A DNA stretch of 64,000 bases from Antedon mediterranea. Lineage: Eukaryota > Animalia > Echinodermata. Shown in pieces: positions 1,609 to 54,348 of this stretch; positions within the stretch are counted from its first letter, which is position 1, and each line of letters begins with the position of its first letter. Below the pieces are notes generated by a model. It was given only the letters and a program-made list of their open reading frames with translations, did no database searches and was not told the DNA's origin. A program made the translations under genes and the position numbers. The stretch spans positions 33,291,648 through 33,355,647 of the forward strand of contig NC_092673.1 in NCBI RefSeq assembly GCF_964355755.1. The letters run 5' to 3'.

Positions 1609-1713
1609 CACAGTCTGGAGGGACCAGAAGGTCTATTTTCTTCTCCGGTAATCGAGGCCAGAAGACTTTGACAGCCTCTCGTAATTCTCTATCGTGACGG
1701 TCACGATCGACAA
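1609..1713 (-). CDS. Cav2 exon 35 (pre-IQ): [35 protein letters not shown]
   Basis: 105 nt, phase 1->1, AG/GTATGA. Confidence 0.93.
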
Positions 1714-4700
1714 CTGAGGATAAATGAAAAAAAAGCTTGTTGAAATTTACACTTTTTATGCTATTAAACTTACAGTGGGTACCAATTCCAATCAAACCAT
1801 TATGTTATTTATCTACTATATACTTTTTTCTGTTGTGGTGAAATTAAATTTTGAATTGAATTGAAATTAAATTGAATTTTGGGGTTTTGAAGGGAAACTG
1901 AGATTAAATTTGATTTGGACTTACCATTGCCGATTTTAATATCTAATGCTGTTCTAATGAGAGCCATCAATGTCGTGGTAAAATGGACCTCCATCTTATC
2001 GTTAAGTGGCATGTTCATTCTGATCAATCGCTGAGAAAGGAGACAAAATACATTATATAATTGAAAAAAATTCTTATCCTTTTCAAAACAAGTGGGATCA
2101 GACTTTATGTGGCTGAAATTGCATACTATTCCAGGTATAGTAATTTCAAATATGAAAAAAACCTTAAAAATGCTTAGAAACATTTTACTAACCTTGTAAG
2201 CTATTCTAACAGGGCAATTTGCGCCAAATCCTACAGGAGGTTCCATTTTCCTCAACATGGTATACATTTTCTCATAATTTATCTTCCCCCTGAAAAAAGA
2301 ATATAGTTACAAAATAATTTTAACATATAAAATCGAATGATGTCAATAAAGTAAATTTGCAGACAAAATAATAAATTGTAACGCGATCAAAATAGTAAGT
2401 GCTTACGTTGCCGCAGGCTCAAAATCTCCCCAAATCCGAACATACTCATCTAAGTGATGAGCACCCAGAATTGATGCATCTCTTGTTAAATAATCAAAAT
2501 TGTCCATAATAACAGCAACGAAAAGATTTAACATCTGAAAATAAAACAAAACAAATGTTATTAGAATTGGAACATTCTTGCCTACACAGATTTATAGTAG
2601 TCTTGTCTACACCAGAGTTTTAGCAGTAGAATCTTGTCTAAACTGGTTTATGGTGGTAGGATCTTGTCTACACCGGTTTATAGCAGTAGAATCTTGTCTA
2701 AACTGGTTTATAGTGGTAGGATCTTGTCTACACCGGTTTATAGCAGTAGAATCTTGTCTAAACCAGTTTATAGAGGTAGGATCTTGTATAAACTAATTTA
2801 TTGTAGTAGAAATCTTGCCTACACCGGTTTATAGATGTAGAATCTTGTATAAACTGTTTATAGAGGTATAATCTTGTATAAACTGGTTTTTACTGGTAGG
2901 ATCTTGTGTACACCGGTTTATAGCAGTACAATCTTGTCTACACCCGGTTTATAGCAGTAGAAACATCACCATTTTAAAAAATAAACTATTTTGTTCACAT
3001 TTATAAATGTTGTGTCTCCAACATTTTAAAAAAAGACCCCTGAGGAAAAAAAATGTGCACAAATGAAAGGCATGATTAGACTGTAAAAAAATTAAATTTA
3101 CTTACCAAAAATGAGCAAAGGAAAATAAAGCTAACGAAATATACGTATGCAAATGGGGATCCACATTCATTTCCTGCTTTTCCTTCACACGCTCTACCCG
3201 ATATACATGCTAACATAATCAGTTGCCAACTCTCTCCTGTTGCACACCTATACACGTTAAGAAACGTCCAATAAAAATGCATATTAATATAAATTTAATA
3301 CGGAGTCAAAGATGAAATCGGTGGCATTGCCTATAATTTCAATATTAAATTATTTGGATATGGTTAATTTTTTAGAAAATAAATTTAGGATAAGATGCAA
3401 ATCATGCAATTGAATAAAATCCCCAAAAGTATAAAGAAGATTTGAGCAATATCTTAACTTAATATTAGAAAGGCAACTTCTACACAACAGGCTATTATCA
3501 CGCATTACAAATACAATGTTTAATGTTAAAACGGGAAAGTTGACTGTATACATATTTTCTGTCTATATTGCAAAACAAAAGCACACTTTTATTTTGAACT
3601 ATCCGCCATTTTGCTGCATTCTAAAGCATTCTAGCTGATATATTTTTTTTTTTTAAACCTGTTTAGTTTTGTTGAAAATATGCTCTTAAGATACATACAT
3701 TCATAATAAACAAAAGAAGGGATACAACATTTATTATATAGCCCTCTAAGATATATTGAATTGCAAAAAGAGTCTCTACAATAAGACAATTAAATATATA
3801 TTTTAAAATTTATAAGCTTTTAATTTAGACCATCAATATCACTTTTAAAGCCAAATGATTTTGTTTTTGTTTTTTTTAAACAAAAAAATTATAAAATTTA
3901 GAAGTTCTTTCTCAATATGAGTCAATTTAAATGTAAATTGGTTTTTTTTTCAAACAAGATTATATAATGTAGAGAATCTTTTTTGAATTAAAAAACATTT
4001 CTGGACGAACATTTGAACATTATTTGTTACAATAATTATTTTTATAATATAGTTTATAAAGAGAAAATGAGAATTTAATAAATATTTAATAATCCTTTTT
4101 GTGCGTGCTTGATTTGCCATATTTGCCATATTTTTTATCACGACCTGAGCGCTAAAATAATATTTTGATATTTCCTTGTAAATAATATTACAATTTTATT
4201 TATATTTTCACAAAAATGCTTTTAGATTAAATAATCATTTCTCTTTTAGAAAAACATATTTATTCCCAAGAAAAGATTTTTAAAAAATATAATGGTTAGT
4301 TTTGCAGTAAAGTTTCATGTTATTTTGAACAATAGAATTACACAATACTAAAGAAATGACAATATTTATTTTAGCAGAGAACTGCTACTGTAAATAAACA
4401 TAAATAGCAACATTTAGCAAAATAAAGAAATTCAAAAGAATAAAATTATATGTCAATAAAAGTACATAGAGTATTAAAGAATTGATTTTAACTTGATTTT
4501 ATCACATTGTTTTATAAAGAACTAGATTAATCTGGTTTGAACCAAAGTAAACTGGTAAAACAATACTGTTTAATAATTGGTTAACTAATTTATTACATTT
4601 AACCAGTTTAAACCAGTTAAAGATGTATTGTCCCTTGAAACACAAAAAAATGAAGGTCAAAATATTCTAAATTTAAAGTGGCCATATCAAAGTAATATTA

Positions 4701-7700
4701 AAGTTATTCACTTTAAGTCGAAAATTTGAGCAAAAAACAAGTTTACGTAATTAACAGGTAAATTAGTTTGATTACATTTCATCTGGAAAATCGTCACGAG
4801 CGAAAGTAAACAAAGATTTCAAACCATGAGTACGCATTATGCATATGCTAAATTAGGATTGTTTACAACTCGTCACGGTTAAGAACGTATTTTCACACAG
4901 ATCATGAGGAAGTTTTATGATTATGCATACAGAGTAGCCAAACAAGCGCGTTTCATTATGGGATATGTTTTGATTGAAAACTTTGACTGGAAGTCAAAGT
5001 CATTTTTTTACCAAAAAAACGTCTGTATTTCAGTTAAAAATTTTTTTTTTTCTACAAATTTTTGGTGATAGTTAATAACTATTATGATACTTCAAAATGA
5101 CCCACCTTTTTTCGAAATCTTTTATTTTTAATTTTTTTTGGAATTAGTCAAAGGGACAATACATCTTTAAATACAGACTGTAAGTAACTTTAGTTGGTGC
5201 ACATGTAGTAAAGGAGTTTCATGCAATACGCCAAACTTTTTTAAAACCTTGTTTTTTGAGAAAAGTATTAAATTTTGAATTCTAATTTATTTTTAAAAAA
5301 TGTTTTTTTATCTTTTCTTTTGCATTATATAGCAATTTTATTATTAATAAGAAAGAAATACGCAGGAAATTGATAGGTAAGGAAGAATAGTAATAGTTAA
5401 GGAACACTGTACAGGTATGAAAAGGCTATTTTGGTTGTAAAGACAGCAACGAATACATTTAGTAAAACCTTTAAACAATATAAAAACAAAGATGGTTATT
5501 ACATAAAAGATCATCACCCCATTTACACTTACTGGCCTAAAGGATGGTGAGTGTTTTAAAAGGGAGTTTATATTTTTTTAGTCCATTTCTATTTGGTTAA
5601 GTTTGTCTTTATTCATGAGTGACATTATGGTCACTGTTTGACCATAATATTTTGCTCTATGGTTTTGATGTAGGTCAAAATATATGTCAAATATGACACG
5701 CTTGATTGCATATGCCAGTCTAAACCAGTTCCAACCTAGTTTGAGGAGCTTACAGTAGGGTTGGCCCAAAAGTGTAAATGAGATGAAAGATACATACAAC
5801 AAATGCATTGATATCATGTACTGTATTAAGCATATAATGTAGCCCCTTAGTATGTGTTAGCAAGATAAAATTCCAAAAAAGATGACTACTATCCAGCCAG
5901 CAAGAAACATATTCCCGTCTAATAAACCAAACATTAGGTTCAGAAACCACATATAAAAGTTGGAATACTGAATATCAAAGTAAACGCAGTCAAATTTAAC
6001 AAAAATCAAAAGAAGTAAAGAATTTCAAAGAGGTAGCCAATACATATGGGTAAAAGGTAAGTGTCAGGTTGGGATTTATTAAAACATCTTTTTTCCACAT
6101 TGATGATAGGATAGTTGGTGTTACATCAAGGATCAATAGACAAGGATATATAGACGGGACACCAGACACAATTTTTAATGTTTCTGCTATTAGATTAGGT
6201 CTACCTGAATAGTAGTAGAAGAGCTGTAAAGAACAGCTGAAAATTGTTATGACTATTAATCTCTGTTTCATCATTGAGTTCTACATTTCCGAACATCTGA
6301 TGGCGTTGCATGCGTGTGTGGAGAGAAACAAAAAAAAAAGAAAAAACACCAATGCTTATTGTTTGAACGATTAAGTGAAATCAGTTTTTCAACTGATGAC
6401 CTAGATTTCCATGAATGTGAATAGGTATGTAAAAAATGCAAAAACTTTAAAGCTCAATTACAGTCTCTGCCATCCAGAATCAGAAACAATGACGTTGTGT
6501 ATTCATAATGACCTTATATTATTATTTTATTATTATATTATTTTTGTACTGCTGTAGTTTTTGCAGTTATTACACACCTATGCATACTCCCTGGTCTAAC
6601 ACATTTGTTTGGTTGGCATTTTGCCAGAAGTGAAACATTACCTGAACAATAGCAGGAGCGACATAAAAAAGTTATGAAAATTGTTGTGCGTGTTGATAGA
6701 GCTTGAAGTATCAGAATATTTAATATCACCGAATATCTAGATTCAAAAGCATAAATAAAGTTAACACATCCTTTAGAGACTTCCAGTCCCTTTAGAGTTG
6801 TTTCACCTTTGACCTATGAAGAAATCGGCCAGTAGATTATGTATCGCCCTCCCGCCCTACCCCACCCTTGGTTCTTGGCATGATAAATCCTATTCTACAC
6901 AGCTATACTAGAATTGAGTGCATTAGTTGAAACCATAACAGGGCAGGGAAGAATTTGAACCAGAACAATGGTGTGACTTCCACCACCAGAATTATGGACA
7001 AGAACCTCAAACCGGCTCAAATTTTATGCCCATTGGTTGTTGTAGTGCCCCCCCTGAATTAGCTTAAAATTTAATTTTCTGTCAACTAGCAAATCTAACT
7101 AGCTAAATGAGAAAGCAAACAGCCAAAAAAAAAGCAAATTATTATGTTGTCGAATTAATTGCTAGGGTAAATTTTCGAACCCTGTAACCGCTCAGTCACT
7201 CAACCTACGATACATTACGATCATTAAACTCCGTTATTTAATCACAAAATTCAACTGTAATAATGTCACTCAAACAAATTAACTACCTAAATACTATAAA
7301 AAACTTTAATCACAAATTGTTTAAAAACAAAAAAGGATATTTAATGTTTTGCATTATCCTAATAATCTAATCTAACCATTAACTCAACATCATTGCAAAT
7401 CACTCTCTCAATACACTCAACAACCTGATTTTGATGACATATCTGCTACTCCTATCCCCCCCCCCCCCCCAAAAAGCGAAACATATTATTTGTTAATTTT
7501 TCAAATCAAAAAATAATGTAATTATTAAATAAATATTAATAGGGGATTTTAGGAAAGAATGTATAGGGTAAATTCTTTTCTAAAATTCCTATTACAATCT
7601 ATTTAATAAATACATAATGCATTTTTTGTCTAACATCAATGCAGGCATTTAAGATAGAGTATTTTCTGTAGTCACCAAGTCTATTATAATTTTAAAAAGC

Positions 7701-10700
7701 AATGCTTCAGCGCACAAGGCTGAATATGATACAACATGGTTGTATGTGTATCACACATGACTTTTTAGATTCATGGACCTGGTTCTAACTTCAAATGATA
7801 AAAACAGACAAGGGAGAGAGAAAAATACTGCCAAAAAGACTCACCTGCATTCCAATAATTGCATAGATAAAGAAAAGCATTCCAATTAATAGGCATACCC
7901 ATGGCAATGCCTAAGACAAGTAAAAAAAGTGAAAAACAAAATATGTTAAATGAATGTAAATATGTTTGATTCTGGATGTTTGGGAACCCATAGAGTAGAA
8001 CCAACCTGATGTTTAACAAACTTGAAAAACATCTTATCAACTTGTTTTGTATAGTGTATAAAGATGGTTTTCCATTATAAAAATGTACTGCATACTCAGT
8101 ACATTGAGGAGATTCAGTGGCGTAACAGCTATGAGCGCTAACTGGCTAAACTCATGTGCCCCAGACCTTAAGGAGCCCCAGAGCATGAGCAGCCTCAATC
8201 AACTATCCAGTGTTGGAGGGCCCTATAGAAGTGCTACACCAGGGAGACTCAATATTTTTCGGATGAGACTTAAACCAACCACCTGAAGATCAATAGTCTA
8301 GTGTTCTTACTAAAAAGCTCACGCTGATAACTAGGGTTAGATAGAGTATGTAAATACAATAACGTCTATGGAAGGCAATATTACAAAGTCATAAGAAATA
8401 TCATTTTACCTTGAAAGACTGCACAAAAGTCCAAAGTAGGATTCGAATCGACGATCCTTGACGTAAAAGTTTGATGAGCCTAGCTGCCCGAAAAAGCCTC
8501 AAAACACTCAAATTAATAAATCCCTCCTGTAAAAACAAACAAGAAAGTGTGTCATATCAAATAAAAATTAAGTTATTCTGGTTATTTGTACCTGCTATAC
8601 CCTTTTACAACTACACAGAGAGAGATCAGTTTCCTCGCCACCCTTTAAGACTTTAAATATTTTTATTTTGCTTATCTATCCTATTTTTTTATATATAGTA
8701 GCAGTACGAAAGTTTGTCCCATAGATTGCAACATGCCATTTCCACATGCAATTTGAAATTCATCAAAAAACCTTTAATTTTATAAGTCAAGTATTTAAGT
8801 GACATAATTTGATAAAAAATATTGATATTCAACGCAACGAAAAGATATCTGGATTATAGACACTGTTGACAGATGGTAGCATGCACATGGATCTAGAGAA
8901 ATCTTTAAATCTATGACTAGTACTAAGTGCGTTTTGTGTGTTTGTATTATATGGTTTATATTACACAATACAGGACAGTCAAATCATTATGGAGAAAAAA
9001 GCGCAGAACACGTAGAGTAACTCACATCAAATGAAAAAATATCCTTTCCTATTGATAGTGTGATTCAGAATGAAATCAACAGATCTTTTTTCTTATGATA
9101 TCAAGCTTTAAATGTGTAACAAATTTGAAAAAAAAATAGTTTAGTGTGTTTTGACACTTTCTAAGAAATCCCTTTAGAGACCATTAAACGGGGAAAAAAC
9201 AAAAAGGTACATTTCTGGAACAATTTTCTCGATTTTCAAACAATTATCAGTGGTAAAGGTGTCTCAGAATTAAATCAACTATAAGTATTAATTATCAATA
9301 AAATACAAATACATTGAAAAAAACACACATTTGTTACAATTGTAAAATTGATGGATCTGTTGATATTTTTTTTGATTCCCTTGCTTGTTTCCGTCACAAG
9401 GTTTTGTCTAATGTCAGTAATATTTAAATGTTGTCTTGTTATCTGTTGATTTTTGCTTGTATATTATATGTTATATTTTACGACTTTCAGCCCTGTTAAT
9501 GGTGACGTTTGGTCACTGTAGGGTGATGATGAAATAAAATAAAAAAAAAAATAAATAAAAAAAAAAACAAAGTGTGAAAATTAATAGTTTTGAAAATTTT
9601 TTAGAATTTTGAAGCTTCTAGACGAAGGAATTCTAGGAATATTTGTGATAAAAAACAGCAATAAAAATTAGAGAGCAAAAAAAACAAAAACCAGAAATAC
9701 AAAAGATTAATGGGAAAAAGACATATCTATTTGTGGTGAAAAATGAATAACGTGAAAACAACACAATTTATCTTATTATCATAGAAGGAAATATAAAGAA
9801 AAGATTTCTTTGAAAATAAATTTGCTCTGCAAAAATACAAAAAATACAAAAATTGTATTATTTTCAGGAATGAATTTTGCCTAACCATAAACAATGTTTT
9901 AAGTATTAGTGGTTTTTGAAAAATTATTGTATCAGGACAAAGAGCAAACTGTAATTCACAAACACCAAGTTCGTCAAGAAATTTTTGACAAACTTCGGAA
10001 AACTATAGAAAACAGCAGCCAATCAAATTAAGTTATTGTAGTCAAGTGATCCAGCAGATGAACACAAAGTCAAAGAATATTTATGTGTTTAAACAACAAA
10101 ATACAAGACATAACACAAATGTATTGTCTCTTTAGTACTGCATCAACTGAAACAAAAAAAGTCGCAACTAAAGGAAAAAATAAAATAGCAAATTAAAATT
10201 CACAAACTTCAACAAATCATTTTAGGATGCACTTCAAAGTATTACATAAATATTGCATAATTTAATTTTCTAACATGTTAGTAAGAATACAGTATTAACA
10301 CTAAGTTACCCTAACAAAATGTATACGTTTAAAAAACATGTGTAATTTGTTGAAGATACACAAAAGATGTATTAATTTAAAATTACTTTAAATTATGAAT
10401 ATATTGCGAAGTTTAAATGACCATTTCAATATATCTAATAAAAATACCCTAATAAAATACAATGACTTTAAAACATAAAATTCTAAAAGTTAAAAGTATT
10501 TTTAAAGAAAGAATTTAGTTTTTGAATAAAATTACATAGGATGATATGATATATAAATATAATATTGCAGTGTGCATAATATCTAAATAAGAGTTTACAA
10601 TTGATTACATAATAATACAGGTTTGTAAAAAGTAGGTGGATCTGAGGTAGATAGAAAGATGCCTAGCAGATGGCTCTGCTAGAGAGCACCTTTGATTGCA

Positions 10701-13700
10701 GGCGTGAATAACTAGTCTGTAGACATTTGGGATTGCCACATTGCGGAAGGAAAGTCCAGTCAGAACATGTTCTGTTCAAGTAGAATAATGTACTGTATGG
10801 TAGTAGAGTATATTTTAGAAAATTAGCATGTCTGTATGCATTGTACATACAAAAGATAGTAGCTATAACTTGCCCGCTATCCCTTCTACCTCTGAATCCA
10901 TTTACTTTCCACTGTATAAAAACCCTGATTTTTGTAAAAAGCAAGCAACAACGTTACCATACAATTATTAAACACAACACGTTAGTAATATAAATATATG
11001 GTAGGTACCAGCCAAACGAAAGTGCAAGATATGGTGGTTTTTGTGAAAAATGTCAAACAAAAATTGAGTTATATAATAAAAATTCACAGGCATATAATAA
11101 TTACTAAACCGCCCAATGATATCTTAGAAATAAATTTGTTGAAACAGTAAAGATGTGAAAATCTGTGAGAATGAGAAAAAGCCACTCCAAGCAAGATTCG
11201 AACCAAAACCTTCCGCTTGATATGCAGATGTCCTAACCATTAGACCACTGGTTCAAAATTGATTGGATAGTGTTTCTTTAACACATTTAGCGTGGTGCAG
11301 CACAACATTGAATATCATTATTTTGTATTTAATTTGTATAATTTGAATTATTATACAATTTGAATTAATAACACAAATTTCACAATAACCAACAATAAAT
11401 AAATATAGGGGTGGAAACGGGGGGAGTTAGTTTAACAAATACACTATCATCTAGTGATATCTATATGATTAGTAATAACAAAAACACAAAGACACAAAAC
11501 ATGATGCTCTGAGCAGATCCGTGGCGACTAAACCTGAGATAGGAATCACCAACAAATTATAAATTTAGGAACTAAAACAAAATCATAATTTTATTCATTC
11601 ATTATTAAATTTTATATGCAATTATAGCATAAATAATCTTTTTATTAAAGTTATATAATTAACAAATTTAATTAAGATTTATTGATTGAAAGGCCGCTGC
11701 AAGAATATACTTAGAGACGTGACACTATGATTACATAATTGTTTGTGCATGAATGCCCAAGAGGCAAGTATGGTTCCAAACACAAGCATTCCACAGTGTT
11801 CGTGTGCATGGCAGCTCATGAGTGTGTGGCAGTCAATTAGAAAGGGCCACGTATTAATACTTACTTTCTATGTAGGTGAAAGAAAAACACAAAGGCAATA
11901 CATGGTTAGCAGAGAGGAATGGATATATAGGGGTAACACAGGAGGGGGGTTTTGTGGCAGAGGGGTGGCAACAGTTGATGAGGTGTCATATTAGGTATTG
12001 GCTGGTTAACTACTGTAATGTATATCCTTCATTGAAGGTTTACTAACAAGACATAGGAGTAGACAGTAATATATAAACAGATTATTATTTACATTAATGA
12101 ATATAATAATGATCAAAAGTAGAACATTTTTTTTTAAATTCAAATAGCAAAATCAAAATTAAAACACATTATATAAACAAATATTCATAACATTGGTAGA
12201 TAATATTATCTGACGGCGGAGAGAGGGAGGATGTAAATTGAAAAAGCTGTTTATTCGCACAGGTACATCCAAAAACAATATACAAGGGGTTTCCCTGTGT
12301 GAAATATTACGTCACCAAGCGTCGACTTTTATTCATTAAAGTTTTTCACTTTGTCTCGGTACAATAAGCTTGCATTTTTGCCGTACACTTAAAACAAAGA
12401 GAAACCCCTTTTTGAATGTTAATTTTAAGCAAGGCCTATGTAATGATATATGAATAGGTACTTTATCATCAGGGGGTTACGTTGGGGAGGTACATCTTTT
12501 TATCATCATTATTATAGCATCTAGTTTAAATCGAACCAATTCAAACACACACAGATGTAAGCAGGTCAATGACCTTAAGGTTAATGAACTCAAAGATTAC
12601 ATGAGCATGTTAATTTTAGCAGGTTAATAATATGGATGTTATATTTTTATCTATTTTTGTTAGAAATGAAATTATTTAAATGGTTTTAGCCATTCAATTG
12701 AAAAAAGTATATATAATAAAAACGTAAGGATCGTCATTTTCCGAGTAATTTTTTTTAATTTTCATTTTTACTTTATGTTCTAAAAAAGGTATATATGCAA
12801 TTGTAAATTAGTAAACAACACTTAAACCAAAATAAATAATTTTTGAATAAATACCTTTTTCTGAGACTATTTTTAATATATAACAACCCAAAGTTATACC
12901 GATAAAAATAAAAACCTGGCCAATTTTTAAAACTGATGCTTTCTGTGCATGCCTTAACTAGAATACTTTTTCATTTTTGGAAGAAAAGAGTTATCAGTTT
13001 TAAATAGAAGGAAAAAAAAACTTACCCCATATTCAGAGACTAGGATGTCTGTAATACTACCAACAACACAAATGAAGTCAAAAATATTCCATGCATCTCT
13101 GAAGTAATTCTAAAAAAACAATTAATTATATTTTATACACCTTTGTGTTTCCTTGCCACTTGATTGGTTGATATTGTTTTTTTTAAAAACTCTGTCTACA
13201 CTATCAAACTAGTTTGACAAAAAAAATGTGAGTGCTCAAATATGGTAGTGATATTGGCCAATATGGTAGTGATATGACATCATCGTGTTCATATATGGGC
13301 ACATCACATTTTTCTGTCACATAAAGTTTGTTAGTGTAGACAGAGCTTAAAACCTAGCCTTGTTAAAACAAAGAAACTTTTCAAAGAAGTCCCCAAGCCC
13401 GTGTGTACAGGGTCTGCAGACTATGTCTAGGAGGGGGCTTACCACCGCCGATTGTGTTGCGAAATAACATTGACGCTCTATCCCCTTTGATTACCATCCC
13501 AATGTCAATGCTCCTCAATATTTCAACTCTAGTACACATTGCATGGTATAGGAAGGACAGCAAATTAGAATTAAATGTCAGATCACTTACCCTAACTCCA
13601 TAAGCTACCAATTTTAGGATACATTCCACTGTGAACATTGTTGTAAAAAAAACGTTGAAGTATTTCAAAATGTCATCCAACTGATCAGGTTGATCATAGT

Positions 13701-16700
13701 ACTAAAATAAAATAAATATATTTAAAACTGTTTATCCATAATACTTAACAAAAACAAAATAAAATCAATATATATTTGGTATATTTTGAGATTCAGAAAT
13801 ATACCACAGTAAAAGATAATGGTATGAGATAATGGACAGAAAAAAGAGCCTATTTATAATGTACCCCTTGAGGGCTCTATTAAACTTGTTTATTTATTAA
13901 AGCATTATTTTTCTTTGGTATCTATTAACTTGGATAACCTTAAATTTTCTCACGTCTTTGCTCCAGCCAACTCTTTTGTGGAGTGGAGACCCACTTGATA
14001 GTTTGATTTAGTTCGCTTTTGGGAATCCTGTCTCTCTCTATTGTTTGTTATTTTTTGTTATAATTATGTGAGACAAAATAAATGAAATGAAAAAAAAAAA
14101 AAAAAAAATTCATTTTTCCACTATTCCTCATACATGTAAATAATAATTATATACAAATATACAATTTTTCAAATTTGAACTTCCAGGCTCGCGGCGGGCT
14201 ACAGTACTTTAGTTTACTTTTTCCATCCATTGCCAATTGTTTTTGTATTTTACTTTATTGTTTTGGCTAAATAAATGAATGTATTGGAGAAGTTGCCTAT
14301 GGAAGTTGGAAACAGATCAACCCTTAGTCTGCATTACTCTCTAATATAAGGGGTTTAAATGAGTTGTTCCCCATAAATTGTCCTGATGGTGAAACTTTAT
14401 AAGTTCAAAATGTTATATCCATATTCAATTCACAATCAATTTTAATTTGTATATAATTTATTTTAATGAGTTTTATCATTTAAAAAACTTTTCAAAAATA
14501 GTTAATATCTTTTGAAATGAAATACCTCAAACAATAGGTGTTATTTTAAGCCACTGAATGCTTTAGAGCACATTTTTTTATAACAAGGCATTATAATATG
14601 ATATGATTATTATATATAACAGATACTTACAGGCATCATGAGAGTTATCGTGTTGATTGCAATCAGTGCCATGATAAAATATTCAAAGGGGGATGACACA
14701 ACAAACGTCCACACTTTAAATTGAAACTTTGTCTGATCCTTTGGCATAAATCTGTCTACAGGTTTTGCAGTAATGCAAAATTCTATGCATTGTTTCTGAA
14801 ATACAACATTTATTTGGCAATTGTAACAAAATACTGTGGTTTGGTGGTTATGATGCTTGGCTACCAATCTAAGGGTCCTGGGTTCAAGTCCTGTCATATG
14901 TCAGGGTTTTTTCTCATGACAATTTACAACTCCACTCCCAAAGACTTAATAATAAGTCTTTGTTTATGTAGAGCATCTTGTGTATATGTTTGTCTTGTAA
15001 AATTTTAAATAGTTTATCCATCCTGTAATTGGCGCGTTACTCGCTGTTGGATGAGTATGAAATAAATAAAATAATAATAATATTAATAATCAGTAGTGGG
15101 ATGGGCAAAATCTTAAAGACCGGTTTTGACTGTGGACGATAAACGGCAATAATAGAAAAACATTTTTCTTACAGAAAACAAAGGATTTCTAGTTTCGCAG
15201 AAAAAGGTATAAATTTTATTTGAGGCTTAGGAGTGAAGCTGAAAGAGTTACAATTCTGCACTAGGTCAGGATTGAACCCTGGACCTAGGGTTGGAAGACA
15301 AGCATGTTAACCACCATACCATTATTAAAGCATAACCTGCATTTACGCCGTCTTTGATGAAAATAATAATTTTTTCGCAAGTAGTTTCAATGTAGTTAGT
15401 ACTAAAGTACGAAATTACGTCAGCGTAGGGCAAACTTCTGACCAATTAAATAATGAGCCTTAATCTAAAGATAATTTATCTCACCTGGTTCTTATCTATA
15501 TCACCATCTTCATACTGCGCGTCTCCCTGTTCCTGAAATGTAATGATGATGAGGGCAACGAAAATGTTCAAGAAAAAGAACGGAAAAATAATGAAGTACA
15601 CTACATAGTATATGGCCATCTGTGTACGTGAGTAAGGTGAAGGTCCCTGGCCCTCCACTGTGGCATCCATTGAGTATTTTAAAATGCTGGAAAAAAAAGA
15701 AGACAATTTTAACACATAAAAAAAAAGCATATACACCAATTAATGAGAGGAAATGTAGTCTGTGAATTGTATTAAAGATGAAATACACGCCAGTACATTG
15801 TTTTTAACAAGTCATTTTTAACATATTTATTTTTACATGAATACAGTTTTTTATTCCCTTCAACTTGGTAAAAGAGAAAAAAAAATGAGGTTCGGAGGTG
15901 AGGAGTCTGTTTAAAGTAGTTATTTTTATTTGATGTTTTTTATACATTTCTATTTTTAATCCGTGCCTATTTATAATTGTTATTTTATATTATTTTATTC
16001 ACTCATAAGCCAGAATTGCAAGAGTTTGATAAATAAATAAATACATATATGTCTAAAGAGATTTAATATTTTGTCTTGTTTTCTTTTAATGCTTAGAAGA
16101 AATCTTCCACTGTGTAGACCTTTTATTTTTTTTGTGCCTGTGTGTTGTTTAACTATAGTTGCATTACTAATTGGTCAACTTGGTCATATCACTACCATAT
16201 TTGAGCATATTACTACCATATTTGGGTAATTTCAACTTACTCAGGCCACCCTTCTCCTGTGGAAACTGTAAATAACGTTAGCATCGATGCGATAACATTG
16301 TCATAATGAAAATCGCGCTTTTCCCAAACTCGTGCCTCAACACTAGTAATCTCATCACCTTCATATCTGAAAAAATTTCCCCTGAAAAAAAAATATAGAT
16401 ATAGATTACAATAAGAGATATGTGTTAGTGCAATGTAATTGTCCTCATTGATGCGTGTTGTATTCTCTTCAGTATTAACACAATACAGTAACCCCTCATT
16501 GAGCCCATCCTCATTCAGAGGAGACGTCTATTAAGGCCAATTTACACAGACGAGTGGTAATGGTAATAAAAATATAGAATCCATGTTAATTGTTATTCCT
16601 GATGAACTCTTACAGATGGACACTTACACACAACACGGAGCAGCTGAGAGGTTTCTGCTCAGGATAGATTCAGATTCTATGTGGGACAAGCTTTATGGTT

Positions 16701-19700
16701 TTCCGCATATCGTTACCGCTCGCTGTGTAAATTGGCTTTTTAAAGACACTTTTCCATGAAATCAACAAGGGGTAATATATAACACACCTTATTAAAGGAA
16801 ATCTTTGTTGGGTCCTGAAAGTGTCTTCTTAAAAGTGTTTGTAAAAAACAATCTCAATTTAAATTCACCTTTTGATTTAGCTTTCTCTTCATTAATTTGT
16901 ATTTTTATTTTATTTTTAAGTAATTTCAATCTACTAAATCGGCAAAAAAAATACAACCTCTCTAAAGTATACAAGTTGTGTTTTGACACTCCATATCCTG
17001 GACACACATAAGTACGAAAGAAAGGGGTGAGGAGAGAGAGACGAAAGGAAAGGTGTGGATATTTTGTATAGAAATTGTCAGTTTCCATTGATTAGGAATA
17101 AACTTACATGCAATCTGGTTCTGTCACTTTAGACATGTCGGTACAATAATTAAATCGCCCCTTTAAAAGTTGAACACCTATGACCGCGAAGATGAACATG
17201 AACAGGAAGTAAACGATGGCGATGTTTACAACGTTTTTGACTGAATGTACTACGCAGTCGAATACAGCCTAAAATGATAAGAAAAAAATGTCAGTAATAT
17301 TGATTTTCAATCAAGTAGAACACACAGACTTGTATCTAGCCACAAATCAAACACATTGCTCGATCCATGGTTGTGGTGGTAGAAAAGTCTTTTCGGATAA
17401 GTACTACTACTACTGTATAAACCATGGTCCAGTGTACACATCTGGCTCATGTGCAATTTAAAGAACCCAGTACATCTTTCGAGGTGAGTAGGAGGTTACC
17501 CCGGTGTACTAGTATATACACAGCCAATGTCACACACACACACACTTATAACTCATCATGAGAGCCCCTTGATTGTCAGCATACGCTGTTTAGGGTCACC
17601 CTCTATAAATAAGGTTAAATAAAAATATAAAAAAAAACATTATATATAATCAGTTAAGACAATTTCTCCTGATATATAAAAAAAAAATGCTGAAATAAAC
17701 ACATGAAAATGAGGTACCTTTAGTTTTGGTATTCTTTTGATGGTTTTCAGAGGACGCAATACTCTCAACACACGGAGACATTTAATAGTACTTAGGTCTC
17801 CACTACCTTCACCCCCAGAGCTACAAAATGAAAAAATCAAATGAACATATATTTTTTATATAATTTACATACTGTGTAACCAAGCGGGTATAATCTGACT
17901 TTTAGTAAGCCCTGTTTACACTTGCACTTGTTGATCCTGTAGGGTATAAGTTTTAGTAAGTCCTGTTTACACTTGTTGATCCTGTACCGCTCAACATTCA
18001 ATGACTAGTGAATGAATATGAACCAATAGGTGAAATGCATACATTAATTTGCAACAACACATTGTAAAGTGGGCACCAATTACACATGTCATGGCCATGC
18101 TAGTTTGTGCCATTGATTAAATGGCATTTACACTAGACCAGTAGTGAAAGTGCCTATAAAGAGGTCTAACTAATGAACATTTCTTGGCCAAGCATACCTA
18201 GCAAGCAGGCAAATTTTCATCTACTAAGCTATGCTTAAAGGTGCCCATATAGACATGGTGATGTCATATCACTAGTAAATTTGGGCATATTACTACCATA
18301 TTTGGGCTTATCACAATTTCTTTGTCAAACTAGTTTGATAGTGTAGACAGAGATTAAGATTAAAATACTTACGTTGAATTAACACCAAATGCCACAAGGG
18401 CACAGATGACAACCGTAGCATCTAGAATGTTCCATATATCTCTGATATATGCACCAGGGTGCAATATCAGGCCCATATCCACTATCTTCATAATTAACTC
18501 AATTGTGAAGATTCCCGTGAAGAGATAATCAAGGTAATTTAATACCTAAAAGAAACAAGCAATAAACATTTTAAATTTAAAATTAGGGTTAGTTAGTTAA
18601 TTTAGACACAGAAACAAATAATGTGTTAAAACAATATTGATGAGGTGTCCTTTTTTCTCCCAATGTATTGTTCTAAATACAAGCAAGCACTCAGTCAAAC
18701 TCAACCGTTCTTTTCAGAACTACATACGTGGTATACCGCAAAAATTATATACATTCAGTCATTTTCACCAAACATCAGAACAAAACAGGTGCATTGTGGG
18801 ATAATAAATTTCTTTCTAACCAATCATTGTTTGCAAACTTCTATTTTTGTTATGGACCATGGTGACAATTGGCTAGCAATGGCTATGACTGAGCGCTTAC
18901 TGGCTAAACCTAGGATCCCCGAACTCAAGGCCAGAGCTGGGCCGGAAGGTAATGGCTATGAGCGCTTACTGGCTAAACCTAGGAGCCTCGAACTCAAGGC
19001 CAGAGCTGGGCCTGAAGGCAATAGCTACGAGCGCTTACTGGCTAAACCTAGGAGCCCCGAACTCAAGGCCAGAGCTGGGCCGGAAGCCCCAGAGCTGTTC
19101 TCATATCAGAGGGCCCCTTAGATTGCCGAAACCAGGGGCTTTCAGCCTCTGCGTTACGCCACTAATTGCATAGCAGAAATATTGAAAAACTTGCTTTGTT
19201 TCGTTCACTTTCTGTGTTGACCGGATCTTCTGCTGCTAACGCTATACTACTAAGACCAATTACAATCATGATGGTGATATCAAACCATCTGTTTATTACG
19301 CATTTGTGGACCAGCACACGGAAGCTGTAAACATAAAATAATAAATAAATATAAAAGAGTTTATGTTATGTATAAATTTTCTTACACCATTTTTAATAAC
19401 GGTTGGAGCTAATTTAAACCGGCAAATCATACTGGCAAAACCTGCATCGGAAGACCACAGAAGATATAAAAAGAAAAGAATGAGTCTTAGAGTTTTTAAC
19501 TTACGGATTTGTTGAACTGAAAATGAACAAGGAACTGAATGGGACAATTGCTTTTGGAACCCCTTCTTCTTCCTCCTCCTCTCCTTCTGGAGCTAAAAAA
19601 ATTATAAAAAAAATCAATTAGGTCAAAGGTTAAATGTGAACAGCTTTCAATTACACAGATTCTATGCACTACTGTTTCTCACAATGTCTGATGAATATTT

Positions 19701-22700
19701 TTGTATTAAAACACAATTCGACTTTAAACAACATATTTATGAAGCAGCAAAAATTAATATAAAATATATTAAGTAAATAGAAATAATAATTTTTTATAAT
19801 TTTTCGAATATAACATAATATTGGTTATCTAACTACAAATAATTGAAAGATAAAACAACAAAATCAACACTGTAGAAAAAAAACACAGTATATTTCAAAG
19901 TACAACATTCATACTAATTAATAACATTCATATCGACCTTTCGTTTTCACGAAAATAAAAGGGCAAATGTCAAAACACAAAATAACCTACTATATTTTGT
20001 AGGTATACCTAGTACCTAGATTAAGCACACACAGTTCATACCTTACATACTGGGTTCATTTCCATATATAATTACAATGGTTCGCATAAGTCTACTGTAC
20101 ATGTATACCTATCAATACATATCACCAGGGGCGGATTCAATGCGTGCGCGTACTGCCCCTTTGACAGACAAAAAAAACTACTTTTTTGATATCCTCTCTT
20201 TTAATGTTAGCACTCCTTCATTCGGTAAATCTAAGATCTGCCATTGACTGTCCAAGTTATAGTTGATGTCTGTGGGTTAAGAATCTATACTAACTAACTA
20301 TATTGCTCTATGGTCTAATGGTATTTTACACGCTTTGAATTCAAAAGGAATGATTTAATCCTAACAAAGTCATTCATTTTACACCAAAAAATTACTAGAC
20401 ATTTTAAATCGGAGTTTCTTTTTCGATTTAACTACATCATTTCTGATTATTGTATACTACTTATTTCAAATGTATTAAAATATTTCACCAGAATAGGAAA
20501 CAAAACTAGAAAACCTTCTTCTTCAGGATCTTTCGTCTTCTTCTTTATAGAACATTCACAATGACACGAACAAACCCAAGGACATTCACATTGGGGATAG
20601 GAACAAGGAAAATGAATTCCATTCACGTTAAGATGGTCATAGTATCTCTTTAACCGGACTTTCCACGTAGCGGTATCCGATTCTATTTCTTCTTCTAATT
20701 CTTTTAAAACAAAAATCATAGTTACAAATACACAGAAACAAAAACAAACTAAACTGTTAACTATCCCAAATAGGGCAACCTCGGGCTGGCAGAAAATGCC
20801 TGGCTTTGATGATTAAGAAAAAACACTTTGGTTTAAAAAAAAATAAATTTTCAGAGATTTTGTTAATACTATAGTCTAAATATTATTATTTTTTATTTTC
20901 GTAATTTCTTTATGTTTCAATGACAGAAATACAATTTTTATTTTTAGGATATTAAAATATTAATCAAAGGAACATTAATTCTTTATTATTGTTTTTTTTA
21001 TATCGTATTTTGAGATTATTTCCATATATTAATTATAACAATATTCAAGAATGAATTTTGTCATTAAGATTTAGAATAACATCACAATTAGATATTAATT
21101 TATTCTTTTTCTTAGTATAGTTTGGAAATTCAATTTTCTAATTGATTAAAAAAATTCAAAAGGAAATTATAAGGATGGTGTTTTCAAAATATAATCTAAA
21201 TGGCAAAGTGAAATTAAATAATCATTATTTTTCTATTAATTTGGGGTAATTCCCTTTAAAATAAATCTCAATTTAACAAAGATTTAAAAAAAGTGATTCC
21301 ATCTCATGCAGATGGTGGAAAAATTAAGTAATACAATTTTCATTTCAATGTTAGTTATTAATAATACATTAAGCATAGAAATACACCAAATCCATGATGT
21401 AAAGTGATTGAGAGAAAAGTAAATAAAAATGTCAGTGATGAAGAAATATTAAGTGCTTAAAATATCAGAGGGTATTAAATAATTTGCATTTAGAAAAATT
21501 GAGTATTAAAAATGTCTGTTTGACTATCGTCAGTGTCAGTATTTTAAATAATATGGCATGAATTCCCAATGTTAGTTTTTAATTTAGTATAGAAAATGAT
21601 AAACATGCCATGAAATGTGATTGAGAAAGTGTATATAAATATCATGTAAGAAATAAATAGTGCTAAAGAATATTTAAAAAATCAAAATTTATTTTAAAAG
21701 TAAAGACAATATAATCAGGGATGTGCCTAAATTCGGGGGGGGGGGGGGGGTCTACTTAGGACTAAATATTTCCGCCTGGCACCAATTTTCTTTTATAGCT
21801 GAAGCTGAATCACCGATTCAACTTTTTTTTTTTTTAAACCATATTTAATGAGGGTGATCCATCCAGCTGTTGCTGATCATTAGGGACCCTCAGAGGTTCA
21901 CAAGACAAACATATACACAAGATGCTCTACATAAACAAAGTCTTATTACAAGTCTTTAGGAGTGGGGTAATTTGGTCCTTAGAAAAAATCCTGACATGTG
22001 ACGGGCTTGAACCCAGGACCCTTGGAGTGGTAGACAAGCATCATAACCACCAAGCCACAACTCCACTCCAAATTGCAAATATATCCTGGAATTCGCTTGA
22101 CCAACTATACTACATTACGCCCTCAATCATTTATATTCTTCTGTGATATTTTTGGCGATAGTTAGCACAATGTTTTCTGTAGTGTGAAAAGGCCATTAGA
22201 CGATACAGCAAGAGGTGAGGTTGTTCATCCCAAAATTTAAAAAAAATCAAATGTATTTATTACTGTACAATGCCCCAATGATTTAAATTAATAAACATTG
22301 CCCAAAGGCGAAAAAAACTAAACCGGTCTCAACCAGTTCGGATCTCATCTAAACAGGTTATGAACATACCAGGAATTAACACAATCGTCTCTCTCCAGTA
22401 TCACATACAGTACATGAAAAATGATATCTTAAAACTATCGTTAGTATTACCACTACTGTACTATGAAACCATTGTCACATGATGACTAACCATGTTATAG
22501 AATGACCAACACATACTTTCAAAAAAGCTTGACACTCAAAATCTAAAGACGTATGGATGAAAAATTTACGAGCCTTTGTTCAAATTTTAAATCACTAAAT
22601 TTAAGCAAAATTTAGATTTTACTTTGAATCATAAAAAAGAAAAAACCTTAAAACAAACAAGAATTTACACAATGAATAAAGAATCAGTAAAAGAACAGTT

Positions 22701-25700
22701 GATTAGTAAATCTAGTATACCTTTATACCCATGTGCAATATTTTATAATGCATAGTCAGCGTGCCATAGTTTAAATTACCAGTGCATAATGTTCACCAGT
22801 GCATTTGTGTGTTAAACTAAACCAAATGGCATGTACCATTATCAATAAAGGTATAACATACCAACAATATGGAACTGAATCATTGTGATATTATTAAAAC
22901 AATTAATAGTAGAAATACATTTTTATACTATTGCTAATTGATTATTAAATAAATTAAAGTAGGATAAACCTCAGAATATCAGATCAGAATATAAATTTAT
23001 ATTTAATTTATATTTATTAAATCAAAATTATTGTTGATGCAAATGTTCGGATTATGCAAATTATATCAGAAGATTTCATTTCCTTTTTTATAGTGAATTT
23101 TTTAATAATTCCCAAAACCAATAGTTTCTACTTCATAATTCACTAATATTTGATTCAGTTCCAGATTGACATTTATTCAACCTTCTGATTGTTGCATTTC
23201 GACTACGAAAGCAATAGAGCATGACAAACATTTGAGCACGCTCAGAAGCCCATACTGACTTCAGGACCAGATGGTGATAGCTTTTGGGACTACAGAAATT
23301 GCATTAGTCAAAAGAAGAGAACCTTGTTTATGATTAATTGCTTTCGTAGTCGTGATTGTCGAATAAAGAAATGAAATGAAATGTCATATAGTTTAGCTTG
23401 TTACAATCAAACTAAACATGTAAGTTATGCTTAGATTTGCCTACCTCCTTCAGCCTTTTTATTTACGTCATTCGACTTCCCCTCTTCACTGTAAAACAAA
23501 AAATTATATAACAATATTTAATATTGATCAAACATAATACGAAGCAAAATTATACTGATGTTTTGGTTGATAGACTTCAGATAAAAACAGGAGGCTTCCT
23601 TGATGCAGTATCCAACACAATTTACAAACATAAAGAAATCAGAAGCCATAACCATAATGCCTGTGAGAGTTGAACATATGGCCTTCTAACTGGCCTAGAA
23701 AGGGTCAATTGAAGGACCTAGGGCCTAGCACGAGGTGAATGCATGGCCTACAGATTGGCCTAGAAAGAGTTAATATTGCAGGGCTTGACTATCCTAGAAG
23801 GATTTAAATAAATGGGCTTCCAACTGCCTTAGAAAGAGTTAATTCTAGGGGCTTCTTATTAACCAAGCAAGAGCTAGACTTACATGGCAAGTTGTCCTGT
23901 ATCAGGGTTTGGTGATCCCTTTCTGCTCATACTTGGTGTCTGTTGAACTAACGCTTCCATCTCTCGATTGATTTTATCCTGTTTCTCTGCGTTCTCTAGC
24001 TCTTCCAATCTGGAGAGCTCTTGAGCATTGGCTAAGTTATCCACGGCAATGGCAAGGAAGACATTCAACAGAGTATCTGAAGATCAGCGGCTAAGGAAAA
24101 CTTTATTTTTCATTATTTCATTCAATATGGCAGCAACAACGAGAAATAGTCTGGAGACTGGGAATTGAATGCTGGAGCCTGGGAATTGAATGCTGGAACC
24201 TGGGAATTGAATGCTAGACCCTGGGAATTGAATGCTAGGCCATGGGAAATTAATGTTAGACCCTGGGGATTGATTGCTAAACACCGGGAATTGAAATACT
24301 AGACCCTGGGAATTGAATGCTAGACCCTGGGAATTGAATACTGGACCCTGGGAATTAAATGCTGGAGCCTGGGGATTGAATGCTGGAGCCTGGGGATTGA
24401 ATGTTACATCCTCGCACTATTCAAGCAAGAGTTGAACTTGGCCTTGCAATGTTTAAAAAGGATACAGTTACCGAAGAGCACCAAAATGATAAAATAAATG
24501 CTAGCCCACATGCCAGATGGTACACCACCTTGTGAGACGATGCCGTTGTACATAACAGCATTCCAATCTTCCCCTGTCAAGATCTGGAATAAATCAAACA
24601 ATTGAATACCAAATTTAAAGAAATCACTGTAGCTTTGTAAAAAAAAATAACTAAAAGTAAGAAATTTAAGGGAATTCTTCAAAATGGTAAATCTACACAT
24701 CATTTGAAAGACTGTATGTCTGAGGGAGACAATCATTGATAAACTACATTGCGAAAAGGGTTATGATCCTTTAAGGCCAGAATATTGTTATCAAAGTCAA
24801 TAGACCAGCACAAGGTTAGGATTATACTCTGGTACTAGGTTGGGATTGAACCTTTAACCTTGGAATTATAAGGAAGGCAGGCAAGCAATCTACCACTACC
24901 TTTCTTTGAAATCTTACCTGGAATACAGTCATGAGAGCTATGGGGAATGTGTCAAAGTTGCTGGATGGTTTATCCTCATTAGGATTAATTGTATTGAAGC
25001 TAAAACAATAAAAAAACAATCATGTACAACTAGAGAATTTACTAATAATAATAATACACAATGTTACTACATTTTTTTCAGATTATGTTAAATTAAAGAA
25101 ATGATTCTACGTCAATTTCACAATTTCAAACTGAACTAAAAACATGTTATCACTATTGACTATATTCAAACAAGGTTAGAATTAGTCAATAATACTATTC
25201 ACAAAACACCTATTCTAATTGTTCTTTATAGATCAATAACGGCTAATCTTATATGATCAATACCAATCAATAATCTTCTAATAATTGTTGTTTAATTTTA
25301 ATATCATGACACAATGAAACATTGTAATGAATCATTTGTTTTGAAATACTTATACGTAAACATACTGATACATACATACATTTAATACATTTATTTTTTA
25401 AATATTAATCATATTCGGCTGTCTATTTCCAGCAAATCTATCTACTAATTTGACTGCTGTAAAGGACCAGATAATATACACATCAAATTTGTTTTATTTA
25501 GATAAATTTGCAATGAAGTAGAGTACAAAAAACAGAATACGACGCACGTAGTCTTCCTAAATTTAGAATTTTTCAAGAACACATGAATATATTATCATAA
25601 GTTATATTTCATTATATCGAAAACATGCATGCAATGAATAGGGGAATAAATTAGGTTGGGTTGAATATTGTGACGAGGTACATAAAATTGATGATTATGG

Positions 25701-28700
25701 GAAAATTAAAAAAAAAATGAATGAAATAATTTATCATTAAATTCGCTAAGGTAATATTCTAATTTTTAAAAGTATGATGATATTAATTTATTCTCTATTG
25801 TGCATTATGGGAAAATAAAAAAAAAATTTGAATGAAATATTTTATCATTAAATTCGCTAAGGTAATATTCTAATTTTCAAAAGTATGATGATATTAATTT
25901 ATTCTGTATTGTGCATTTTACAATGGATTTACTGTTATTGTTTAAATTGGATGAAAATTTAGATAATTTGTTTTTTTGTATATATATAGTTTGTAAAATA
26001 AAATTGTTGTCATTGGTCAACTCAATTGAATATTGTCCTTGCGTTACGTTCTAGTCGGAACAAATCTTTATAGGGGTTAGCATACAGAAATATTAATTTA
26101 TAATATAAATTTTATATATTCACAGTACACTGTATAACATGCAATACAATTTTCGCATTTTGCAATCCATATAATACACCCCCAATGCCCATTATTATAT
26201 GGTTTGATTGTTAAACACCTTATCAACAGTAAATCTGCTATAATATATGGTTAATTTGTAGTAATATATGATACCCACAAATTAATACTTAATGTATAGA
26301 ATAATGCAATTTTCATATATTTACAGCACCAACGAAAAACATCTTCCGTTTGTTAGCTAATCTCCCAAAATGAATGCACTGAAACTGTATTGACATTTCC
26401 CACAATGCATGTATTTCAAAATATTTCCCACAATCAGGATGTTAACATCTTCCACAATGCACTTTCCAATCACTCAACATTGTTTGTTTGGGGCGCATGG
26501 ATTGCGATAGGCGAGAATTGCTGCAATCGTAACTTTTCAGCTACCGCACACATAATTACCTTCCACCAAACAACTGCATCCCCAGCATAGCAAAGATGAG
26601 AATGAACAGGAAGAGTAGGAACAATAAACTCGCAATGGATCGTAAACTACTGAGTAGGGAGATGACTAAATTCCTTAGAGAGGACCAATAGCTATAGGTG
26701 GATCCGATGAATGGAGAATATAATGAAACAGAAAGATGAAGAAAATTATAAATTAATAATCAATGTAATATATATATTTAATGATCTGATAGGGTGATGT
26801 TGATTCCATTGTTTCTTGTTTGTTTACATTCATTGTAATAGTAACTTTTGCCATTTGGAAACGAGCCACCATTATCGTACGAATTTAGGTGAAAAATTAA
26901 TCGCAAAACCGTGGCAAACAATTTGAAATACGATTTGTTTTAAGCACTATTCAATTATAAATTTGTTTTTTTTCGATAAATTTCCATTAATTGTAGCGAA
27001 GTCGAGAAAACTTTAAATAAACATAAAAGCTTGGTTCCCACTATGATGTGCAGCGCAAGTAAATTTGATTAATCATGTCATGATTGGTAAAATTTCTTGT
27101 GTTGCGCCTGCGTTTTTGCTCGTGTCCTAGTGGGAACCAAGCTTACTAAAATTCAATTTATATATTTGTCCACCATGGGAAATTCAGATTGTTAGTTATA
27201 CAATTGTAAACAAGAAACAATGGAAGCTTGGATGTCTTCCATGATATGGTAGGTGGAGAGATGATTCCTCGTCTGCTACTTACTATCCACCAAATAGTTG
27301 CATTCCGAGCAACGCAAATATTACAAGAAACAGGAAAAGGAGAAAGACCAAGCTTAAAATCGATTGTAAACTATGGAACAAGGAGACTAGCAGATTGCGC
27401 ATTGTCTTCCAGTATCTGTGAACAAGGATGTTAATGTTTATTTCGGTACATATAAGTTAGACCTGACCTCTAACCTACAAAAAATATTCAGAATTAAAAG
27501 TTAACCATGTGCAGTTTGATATTGTCAAATTACTTTTCTTCATATCACAAATAAAAAATAAAGAAGCACGTTCATGTTATTTAATTTTTCGTTGCATACT
27601 TCAGTGAGACATGTCTATTGTTTGCTAGACTTTGAGAACGTAAACATCATGTCCGGATGATTTGACTTTTGGTACTCGTCACGATTTTTAGAAATTATTA
27701 TGTTACAGTTATTTTTCCTAGATTAATTTTTTTTTAAATATACTCGCCTTGTTACTTTGAAAATTCTAAGCAAACGAAGAGCTCGCAGGACACTGAGGCC
27801 AAACGATGAATCTTTGAATATTGACCAGATGACCTCAAACAAGCTCGCTAAAATGACCTGTGAAAAACAAACCAATAAACTCCTCAAAAAAGCTCAATTA
27901 AAAGTGCTATATTCCTGTGGGTATTTTGTCATTTTTTTCTCCTCACACACCCTCATCCATTCTCGAAGTTGTAATCCTGAATCCATTCTTGAAGTTAAAT
28001 ATACTTCACAACAAACCACCTCACATAACAACTTAAGATGTCGGCATGTATCATGAAACATTATGTTATAAAGAGGTTTTGTACAGAGCTAACAAAAATA
28101 TGCAAATTACACTATCATGTGCATTAACATACCATGCAATCAAACTTATTAAATGCTGACTTGAAATATATCTGAGGTCCTAAACCATACATTTTTATTG
28201 ACATCTCCAAGATGAAGACGCATAGGAATGTTATTTCCGCATAGACTGTAAAACAAAAGAAAGTTTTAAGGTTAGAAAATGCTAAAAATAGATCTGAATA
28301 GATTGGTGGTAAGATGCTTGTGACTGATCCTTATAAACCCTAGTTTTTTAGAGGTGTCCCCTGATTAGAAGCTAGTTTTAGTGTTAAAATTCCCCTTGCT
28401 CTTTCCACAGGAAGGTGTCTGACTATGGTGTTTCAAAGGAAGGGTATCCTAAAGGTTGGGTTCTATCGTTGGCATGCGAAAATAGAGTTTTACTGCCTTA
28501 CAATACATTTTTTTATGTGTATACATATTTGTTATTTATACGGTTGCGAAACCGCCGTAATATCTGATGGTATAAGATACGAAGGTCTATATTTGTATAG
28601 TATTTGATAAAACTCTTCACAACTTTTACAATATAAAAACATACTTACAGAGGAAGGTTCCGAGCCATGATGGTTGCGGATAGTGCTCAATAGCAACACA

Positions 28701-54317: not shown

Positions 54318-54348
<31 letters not shown>

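Follow-up and report, generated by a model that had tools for sequence, protein, structure and literature searches.

Two tandem, alternatively spliced exons for the domain IV S5-P loop and P1 helix in a crinoid Cav2 channel gene

Introduction

Most invertebrates possess a single Cav2 gene that is diversified by splicing, and the Cav2 splice switches studied lie in the voltage sensor and in cytosolic linkers. Duplicated exons are common in four-domain channels. In Drosophila, the one Cav2 gene, cacophony, is diversified by exon choice at IS4A/B and I-IIA/B, i.e. in the voltage sensor and a cytosolic linker, and these are the only pairs named as mutually exclusive in the accessible text of the two reports (PMC11828482, PMC12370356). 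Three cacophony duplications have been counted, the third of which goes unnamed in the accessible text (PMC9741552), and we did not find it identified in the available portions of the supplements of PMC9741552, PMC8373072, and PMC7954323; it may be the site described here.

Pore-region pairs are known from related channels. Exons 12a and 12b of the T-type channel Lymnaea LCav3 are tandem, mutually exclusive S5-P loop exons that leave the filter ring unchanged; they belong to domain II, are cysteine-rich, and form a proven Na/Ca switch that depends on a domain II Lys-Asp contact together with the cysteine-rich loops (PMC4436565, PMC9694082). NALCN exons 15 and 31 are duplicated pore-region exons of a four-domain channel, echinoderms included, and contain the filter residue (PMC6259924). 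Aplysia Cav2 has a mutually exclusive domain IV pair, exon 33a/b, which encodes IVS1-S2/S2 (PMC5818475, PMC10657410).

Here, we describe an exon pair in a Cav2 gene of the crinoid Antedon mediterranea that is likewise tandem and probably mutually exclusive, but encodes the S5-P loop of domain IV together with the P1 helix. It thus differs from the cacophony pairs in affecting the pore loop, from Cav3 12a/12b in its domain, its lack of cysteines, and its inclusion of P1, from the NALCN exons in stopping five residues before the filter residue, and from Aplysia 33a/b in the segment encoded. A reading of the DNA made without database searches (the sequence-only reading) had proposed the pair and named no equivalent domain IV turret pair for Cav2, and we found no description of a domain IV S5-P exon pair in Cav2 in the open-licence literature, which takes in a minority of subscription journals. 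RefSeq/GenBank Cav2 isoform pairs from other species do show alternatives at exactly this segment, as automatic annotations for which we found no accompanying paper. As far as searched, the pair is therefore new as a described feature, though already annotated automatically.

Results

Host gene

The window, i.e. the whole stretch of 64,000 nucleotides analysed, contains part of one gene:

Host Cav2 alpha1 gene (part): 1610..63999, minus strand; N-terminal region to proximal C-terminus, extending beyond the window

Compared with solved structures, the host protein best matched Cav2.2, 2.1, and 2.3, with 1866-1948 bits for Cav2.1-2.3 against no more than 1441 for Cav1 and 604 for Cav3; it resembles Cav2.x more than it does Cav1, Cav3, or Nav. 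Among the matches, the closest named protein belongs to a crinoid, Anneissia japonica (91% within the part that matched). On these comparisons, the gene is assigned to Cav2 alpha1. Its four-repeat selectivity filter reads EEEE in the isoforms with either alternative exon.

Several other features of the gene were recorded. An optional exon of the II-III linker (20701-20516, minus strand) encodes a cysteine-rich cytosolic stretch and is present in 14 of the 15 listed own-species models. Two introns are GC-AG (window positions 27747 and 19194, minus strand), one of these being the donor directly upstream of the domain II pair described below. High-copy repeats occupy ~4615-5170 and 8026-8276; within the first, 4616-5167 is missing from the contigs of all four sequencing runs compared, which suggests a polymorphic insertion.

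Two intact homologous exons between IVS5 and the pore exon

The pair and its surroundings are as follows:

Alternative exon a: 6736-6642 (95 nt), minus strand; domain IV S5-P loop and P1 helix, one residue longer than b
Alternative exon b: 6296-6205 (92 nt), minus strand; domain IV S5-P loop and P1 helix, with an orthologue in Anneissia
Intron between a and b: 6297..6641 (345 nt), minus strand; GT-AG
Constitutive IVS5 exon: 7910-7845 (66 nt), minus strand; common upstream donor at 7845, joined to both a and b
Constitutive pore exon: 3247-3106 (142 nt), minus strand; domain IV filter Glu, P2, and start of IVS6

Both alternative exons are intact, each with an AG acceptor and a GT donor, and run from phase 0 to phase 2; the IVS5 exon ends in phase 0, and the last base of the split Arg codon comes from the pore exon. 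Translation gave an open frame with a alone or b alone and early stops with both or neither. The sequence-only reading had been accurate on all of these points, from coordinates, lengths, translations, and splice-site ends to the 345-nt spacing, the phases, and the frame shift caused by including both exons or neither. Two of its statements could be refined. What it called turret exons do encode the S5-P loop, and in addition the P1 helix, stopping five residues short of the filter Glu; and the Arg of the usual R-H-N-N-F motif is missing from both copies.

With 126 distinct turrets of domain IV as its basis, a profile recognised the two exon copies with E values of 1.7e-16 and 3.7e-15. A third turret copy was rejected for the 64-kb window, where no further locus matched the profile better than E 1.8. 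Lying next to each other, homologous, similar in length, and equal in phase, a and b fit a tandem duplication. They are identical at 16 of 30 residues (47% amino-acid divergence) and at ~54 of 90 bases; half of the residues in common (8 of 16) are spelled by different codons. Low identity at both levels and these codon differences mark the duplication as old.

Probable either/or splicing

Assembled contigs of four sequencing runs were compared with the window, and runs X1 and X3 were then examined over 5400-8000. In X1, whose record does not list it as RNA and whose RNA status is a guess, contigs join 7845 to 6736 (depth 97.8) and 7845 to 6296 (depth 69), both with CT..AC ends, with only 23-28 letters on the short side of the joints, below our 31-letter bridging rule. 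Loose ends at the donors of a and b (depths 103.7 and 98) read into the pore exon, giving the joints 6642-3247 and 6205-3247. Each exon is hence joined to both flanking exons. The contigs of the flanking exons have depths of 161 and 206.5, near the sum of the two branches, contig depth being a poor measure of expression. None of the four junctions occurs in the DNA-like run X3 over 5400-8000. No a-to-b or exon-skipping joint was found among the X1 contig joints, and assembled contigs cannot prove absence. X1 also holds an unspliced contig spanning the a-b intron (depth 30.5).

A public protein cluster of 17 members matches the window exon by exon; among the 15 listed, 13 use a and 2 use b, counts that reflect annotation and not expression. 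The four single-exon junctions, which the sequence-only reading had singled out for checking, are thus all present, in one run and in contigs with short overhangs, and together with the own-species models using each exon they support the mutually exclusive splicing it had proposed. The Cav2 turret feature is real and, on this evidence, probably spliced either/or.

The presence of b in only 2 of the 15 listed models might suggest that one of them has decayed into a pseudo-exon or arose as an artefact of assembly. We regard this as extremely improbable: both exons are joined in X1, at similar contig depth, a single DNA contig covers both in X2, X3, and X5, and the version annotated in Anneissia is b. 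These observations contradict the case of a never-spliced or decayed copy, by which the sequence-only reading would have fallen. No exon-internal variant was seen in a or b in X3, where 7 substitutions and 4 indels over 5400-7216 would lead to an expectation of about one in the exons.

Protein segment affected by the exon choice

In human Cav2.2 (7MIX), the counterpart of exon b by alignment is residues 1620-1649, which make up the short S5-P loop and the P1 helix. A predicted fold of the 30 residues of exon b in isolation is one helix, which out of protein context carries no information. The filter Glu of domain IV is encoded by the constitutive exon 3247-3106 and is followed by Ser in both isoforms. 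In human Cav2.2, ziconotide contacts D1628 and D1629 on the domain IV loop, and alpha2delta contacts loops of repeats I-III (PMC10761187). The residues at the positions of D1628/D1629 are D and E in b, D and S in Anneissia b, and D and T in a under an alignment begun at the N-terminus, the assignment for a depending on where its extra residue is placed. The "two outer vestibules" of the sequence-only reading therefore gain a structural position that includes the ziconotide contacts, and are themselves predicted from that position. Its net loop charges of -1 for a and -4 for b are correct for this species. As a conserved feature, the charge contrast fails: Anneissia b carries -1, the urchin pairs 0/0 and -1/-1, and insect pairs range from 0/+1 to -3/-1. 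In arthropods, a steadier contrast is found at the start of P1, where Arg in one version faces Gln in the other in 9 of 10 paired species; the crinoid has His versus Gln.

We consider it likely that this Cav2 channel, by splicing in a or b, keeps the same EEEE filter and takes on another domain IV outer loop and P1 helix, which would tune the channel mouth and not its selectivity. The tuned properties would be block by peptides or divalent ions, conductance, and possibly gating. Exon choice may be cell-type-specific and may alter channel properties. Counting against this, the swap of another domain IV exon pair in Aplysia made no difference to synaptic depression (PMC10657410).

The sequence-only reading had drawn an analogy to the selectivity change in Cav3. 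In such a switch, a basic residue in one loop would neutralise an acid beside the filter. It has its precedent in the Cav3 domain II loop (PMC9694082), and exon a indeed has a Lys that is absent from b; the Arg/Gln contrast of the arthropod pairs would also fit. However, the Cav3 mechanism needs a domain II Asp next to the filter, whereas here Ser follows the filter Glu of domain IV, and the same loop position is Lys in Anneissia b and in single-exon molluscs as well. A domain II loop with a differing cysteine pattern, as in Cav3, is not what we found, the pair being in domain IV with no cysteine in a or b, and the domain IV loop (L5IV) is described as always short in PMC6259924. With the EEEE filter encoded elsewhere than in the alternative exon, a switch between Ca and Na as in Cav3 is improbable, and the analogy is weak. 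Between the two, we favour tuning of the outer mouth or gating.

What has been selected might instead be a difference in P1 and in how this helix packs against S5/S6, with an effect on gating, folding, or surface delivery and not on the outer mouth. Exons a and b encode different residues at the first five P1 positions, and P1 patterns typical of each class return in echinoderms and arthropods, unlike loop charge; yet the loop holds the indel and the majority of the substitutions, and we judge this reading unlikely.

Distribution across species

The sequence-only reading had treated the pair as a rarity. This does not hold, as the same site is annotated with alternatives across echinoderms and arthropods. 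Listed isoforms were grouped into species sets free of fragments, cross-species cluster members, and species with one model. Among the isoforms listed, at least 14 of 36 sets have two or three versions of the segment and 22 have one, a single version among listed cluster members being no proof that a second is absent. Paired sets among these isoforms make up at least 4 of 9 echinoderms (this species, Strongylocentrotus, Lytechinus, and Amphiura with three versions) and at least 10 of 19 arthropods. RefSeq/GenBank isoform pairs of the latter come from Limulus, Tachypleus, Varroa, Oedothorax, Cherax, Amphibalanus, Macrosteles, Halyomorpha, Plodia, and Cydia, and the spider gene model P0570 has both versions in tandem. 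No second version was found among the listed isoforms of five molluscs, one hemichordate, and two others. Vertebrate Cav2.2 representatives among the listed matches, not counted per species, show one type of segment. The turret pair is widespread and not peculiar to this animal.

The hemichordate Glandiceps (P0558, P0560 versus P0451) has one turret version and two versions of the next exon (filter, P2, start of S6), both of which keep the Glu.

Exon b is 77% identical to its Anneissia orthologue and grouped with it at 100/89 and 99/95 in two trees, the only grouping firm in both. A 59-row tree of 31 columns placed b with Anneissia and hemichordates (96/85) and a with other echinoderms (92/86), an arrangement that the 29-row tree failed to recover. 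Four histories were compared by AU test and none was rejected: a duplication confined to crinoids (p 0.33), orthology of b with urchin version 2 (p 0.28), a single clade of all echinoderm copies (p 0.49), and a placement of b with arthropod version 2 (p 0.25).

Could a and b be functionally near-equivalent, and kept through split expression or drift? The 22 of 36 species sets with one version among the isoforms listed would fit, as would the resemblance of the three Amphiura versions to each other and the description of fly cacophony with only two mutually exclusive pairs in the accessible text. Against it, frames and splice sites have been kept despite 47% amino-acid divergence, b has stayed 77% identical to that of Anneissia, and distinct turret classes persist across chelicerates, crustaceans, and insects. 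We give near-equivalence little credence and continue to favour tuning of the channel mouth.

A predicted stem in the a-b intron

The intron between the two exons contains an inverted repeat of 34 nt (82%):

5' arm of predicted stem: 6556..6589, minus strand; starts ~50 nt after the donor of a
3' arm of predicted stem: 6413..6446, minus strand; ends ~115 nt before the acceptor of b

A stem of ~40 pairs is predicted in both the minimum-energy and the centroid fold, and a 22-nt probe from it matches the two arms only within the window. Among the 32 introns of at least 300 nt (five shorter ones were left out), the a-b intron ranked first for pairing between donor flank and acceptor flank and the intron of the domain II pair second in two tests, the windows of the first having been set after the stem was seen; a constitutive intron ranked third, and the IS4 pair intron gave no signal. 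Stability as such is modest: the whole a-b intron fold reached z -1.34 against shuffles (7/100), and among 1060 windows taken from the gene, 51 reach the stability of the 201-nt piece selected.

Branch-like motifs lie at -88 and -78 of the a-b intron, and the nearest upstream AG 60 nt before b; the AG-free zone of 56 nt is unremarkable (rank 12 of 32 introns). U2/U12 incompatibility was rejected as a mechanism of exclusivity, all three introns being GT-AG. The steric limit for mutually exclusive exons is <50 nt from donor to branch point (PMC5740500). A simple steric block does not apply here because the linear distance is ~260-270 nt. With stems collapsed, the predicted distance is 35 nt (26-46), the branch point being itself predicted and not mapped. 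The long stem in the 345-nt intron may therefore bring donor and branch point to within ~35 nt and sterically block a-to-b splicing. A similar structure-aided block operates at Dscam exon 17. Transcripts with both exons or neither would meet early stops and presumably be removed by nonsense-mediated decay, so that the frame rule would serve as a safeguard.

Other alternative pairs and stems in the gene

A domain II pair (27415-27284 and 26691-26560, minus strand) encodes the S4-S5 linker and S5. Both copies are intact and 132 nt long, and joining both therefore stays in frame. The upstream copy is used by none of the 15 listed own-species models, and its class is found in Amphiura, Diadema, Strongylocentrotus, Lytechinus, Apostichopus, Patiria, and the hemichordate Glandiceps. 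The domain II pair may predate the turret pair and be better conserved than it. Its intron contains a perfect 18-bp inverted repeat (26804-26821 / 27208-27225) and a nested 20-bp one, with a geometry like that of the turret stem, ~58 nt downstream of the donor and ~112 nt upstream of the acceptor; the intron as a whole has z -4.49.

An IS3-S4 pair, 42431-42340 (92 nt) and 41052-40925 (128 nt) on the minus strand, is used by 1 and 14 of the 15 listed models, respectively. Lytechinus also has two versions, and the region is that of Drosophila IS4A/B. The constitutive intron 36880-37244 (IS6 to I-II linker) has a long predicted stem as well (z -2.46).

Discussion

The present work places a probable two-state exon switch at the outer pore of Cav2. 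A bolder proposal, put forward tentatively and on balance doubtful, is that the turret/P1 exon marks a hot spot of repeated duplication, as yet undescribed, in echinoderms and arthropods and yields presynaptic channels with other pore-blocker pharmacology or permeation, and that the crinoid hairpin enforces the choice.

An outer-pore switch is annotated in chelicerates, crustaceans, insects, and echinoderms, and has no description for Drosophila in the accessible text of PMC11828482 and PMC12370356. The predicted intron stem represents a directly testable splicing mechanism, with a second example, at the domain II pair, in the same gene. Besides, the pair would offer a natural two-state experiment on the roles of the short domain IV loop and the P1 helix, and exon choice could explain cell-to-cell variation in invertebrate Cav2 pharmacology.
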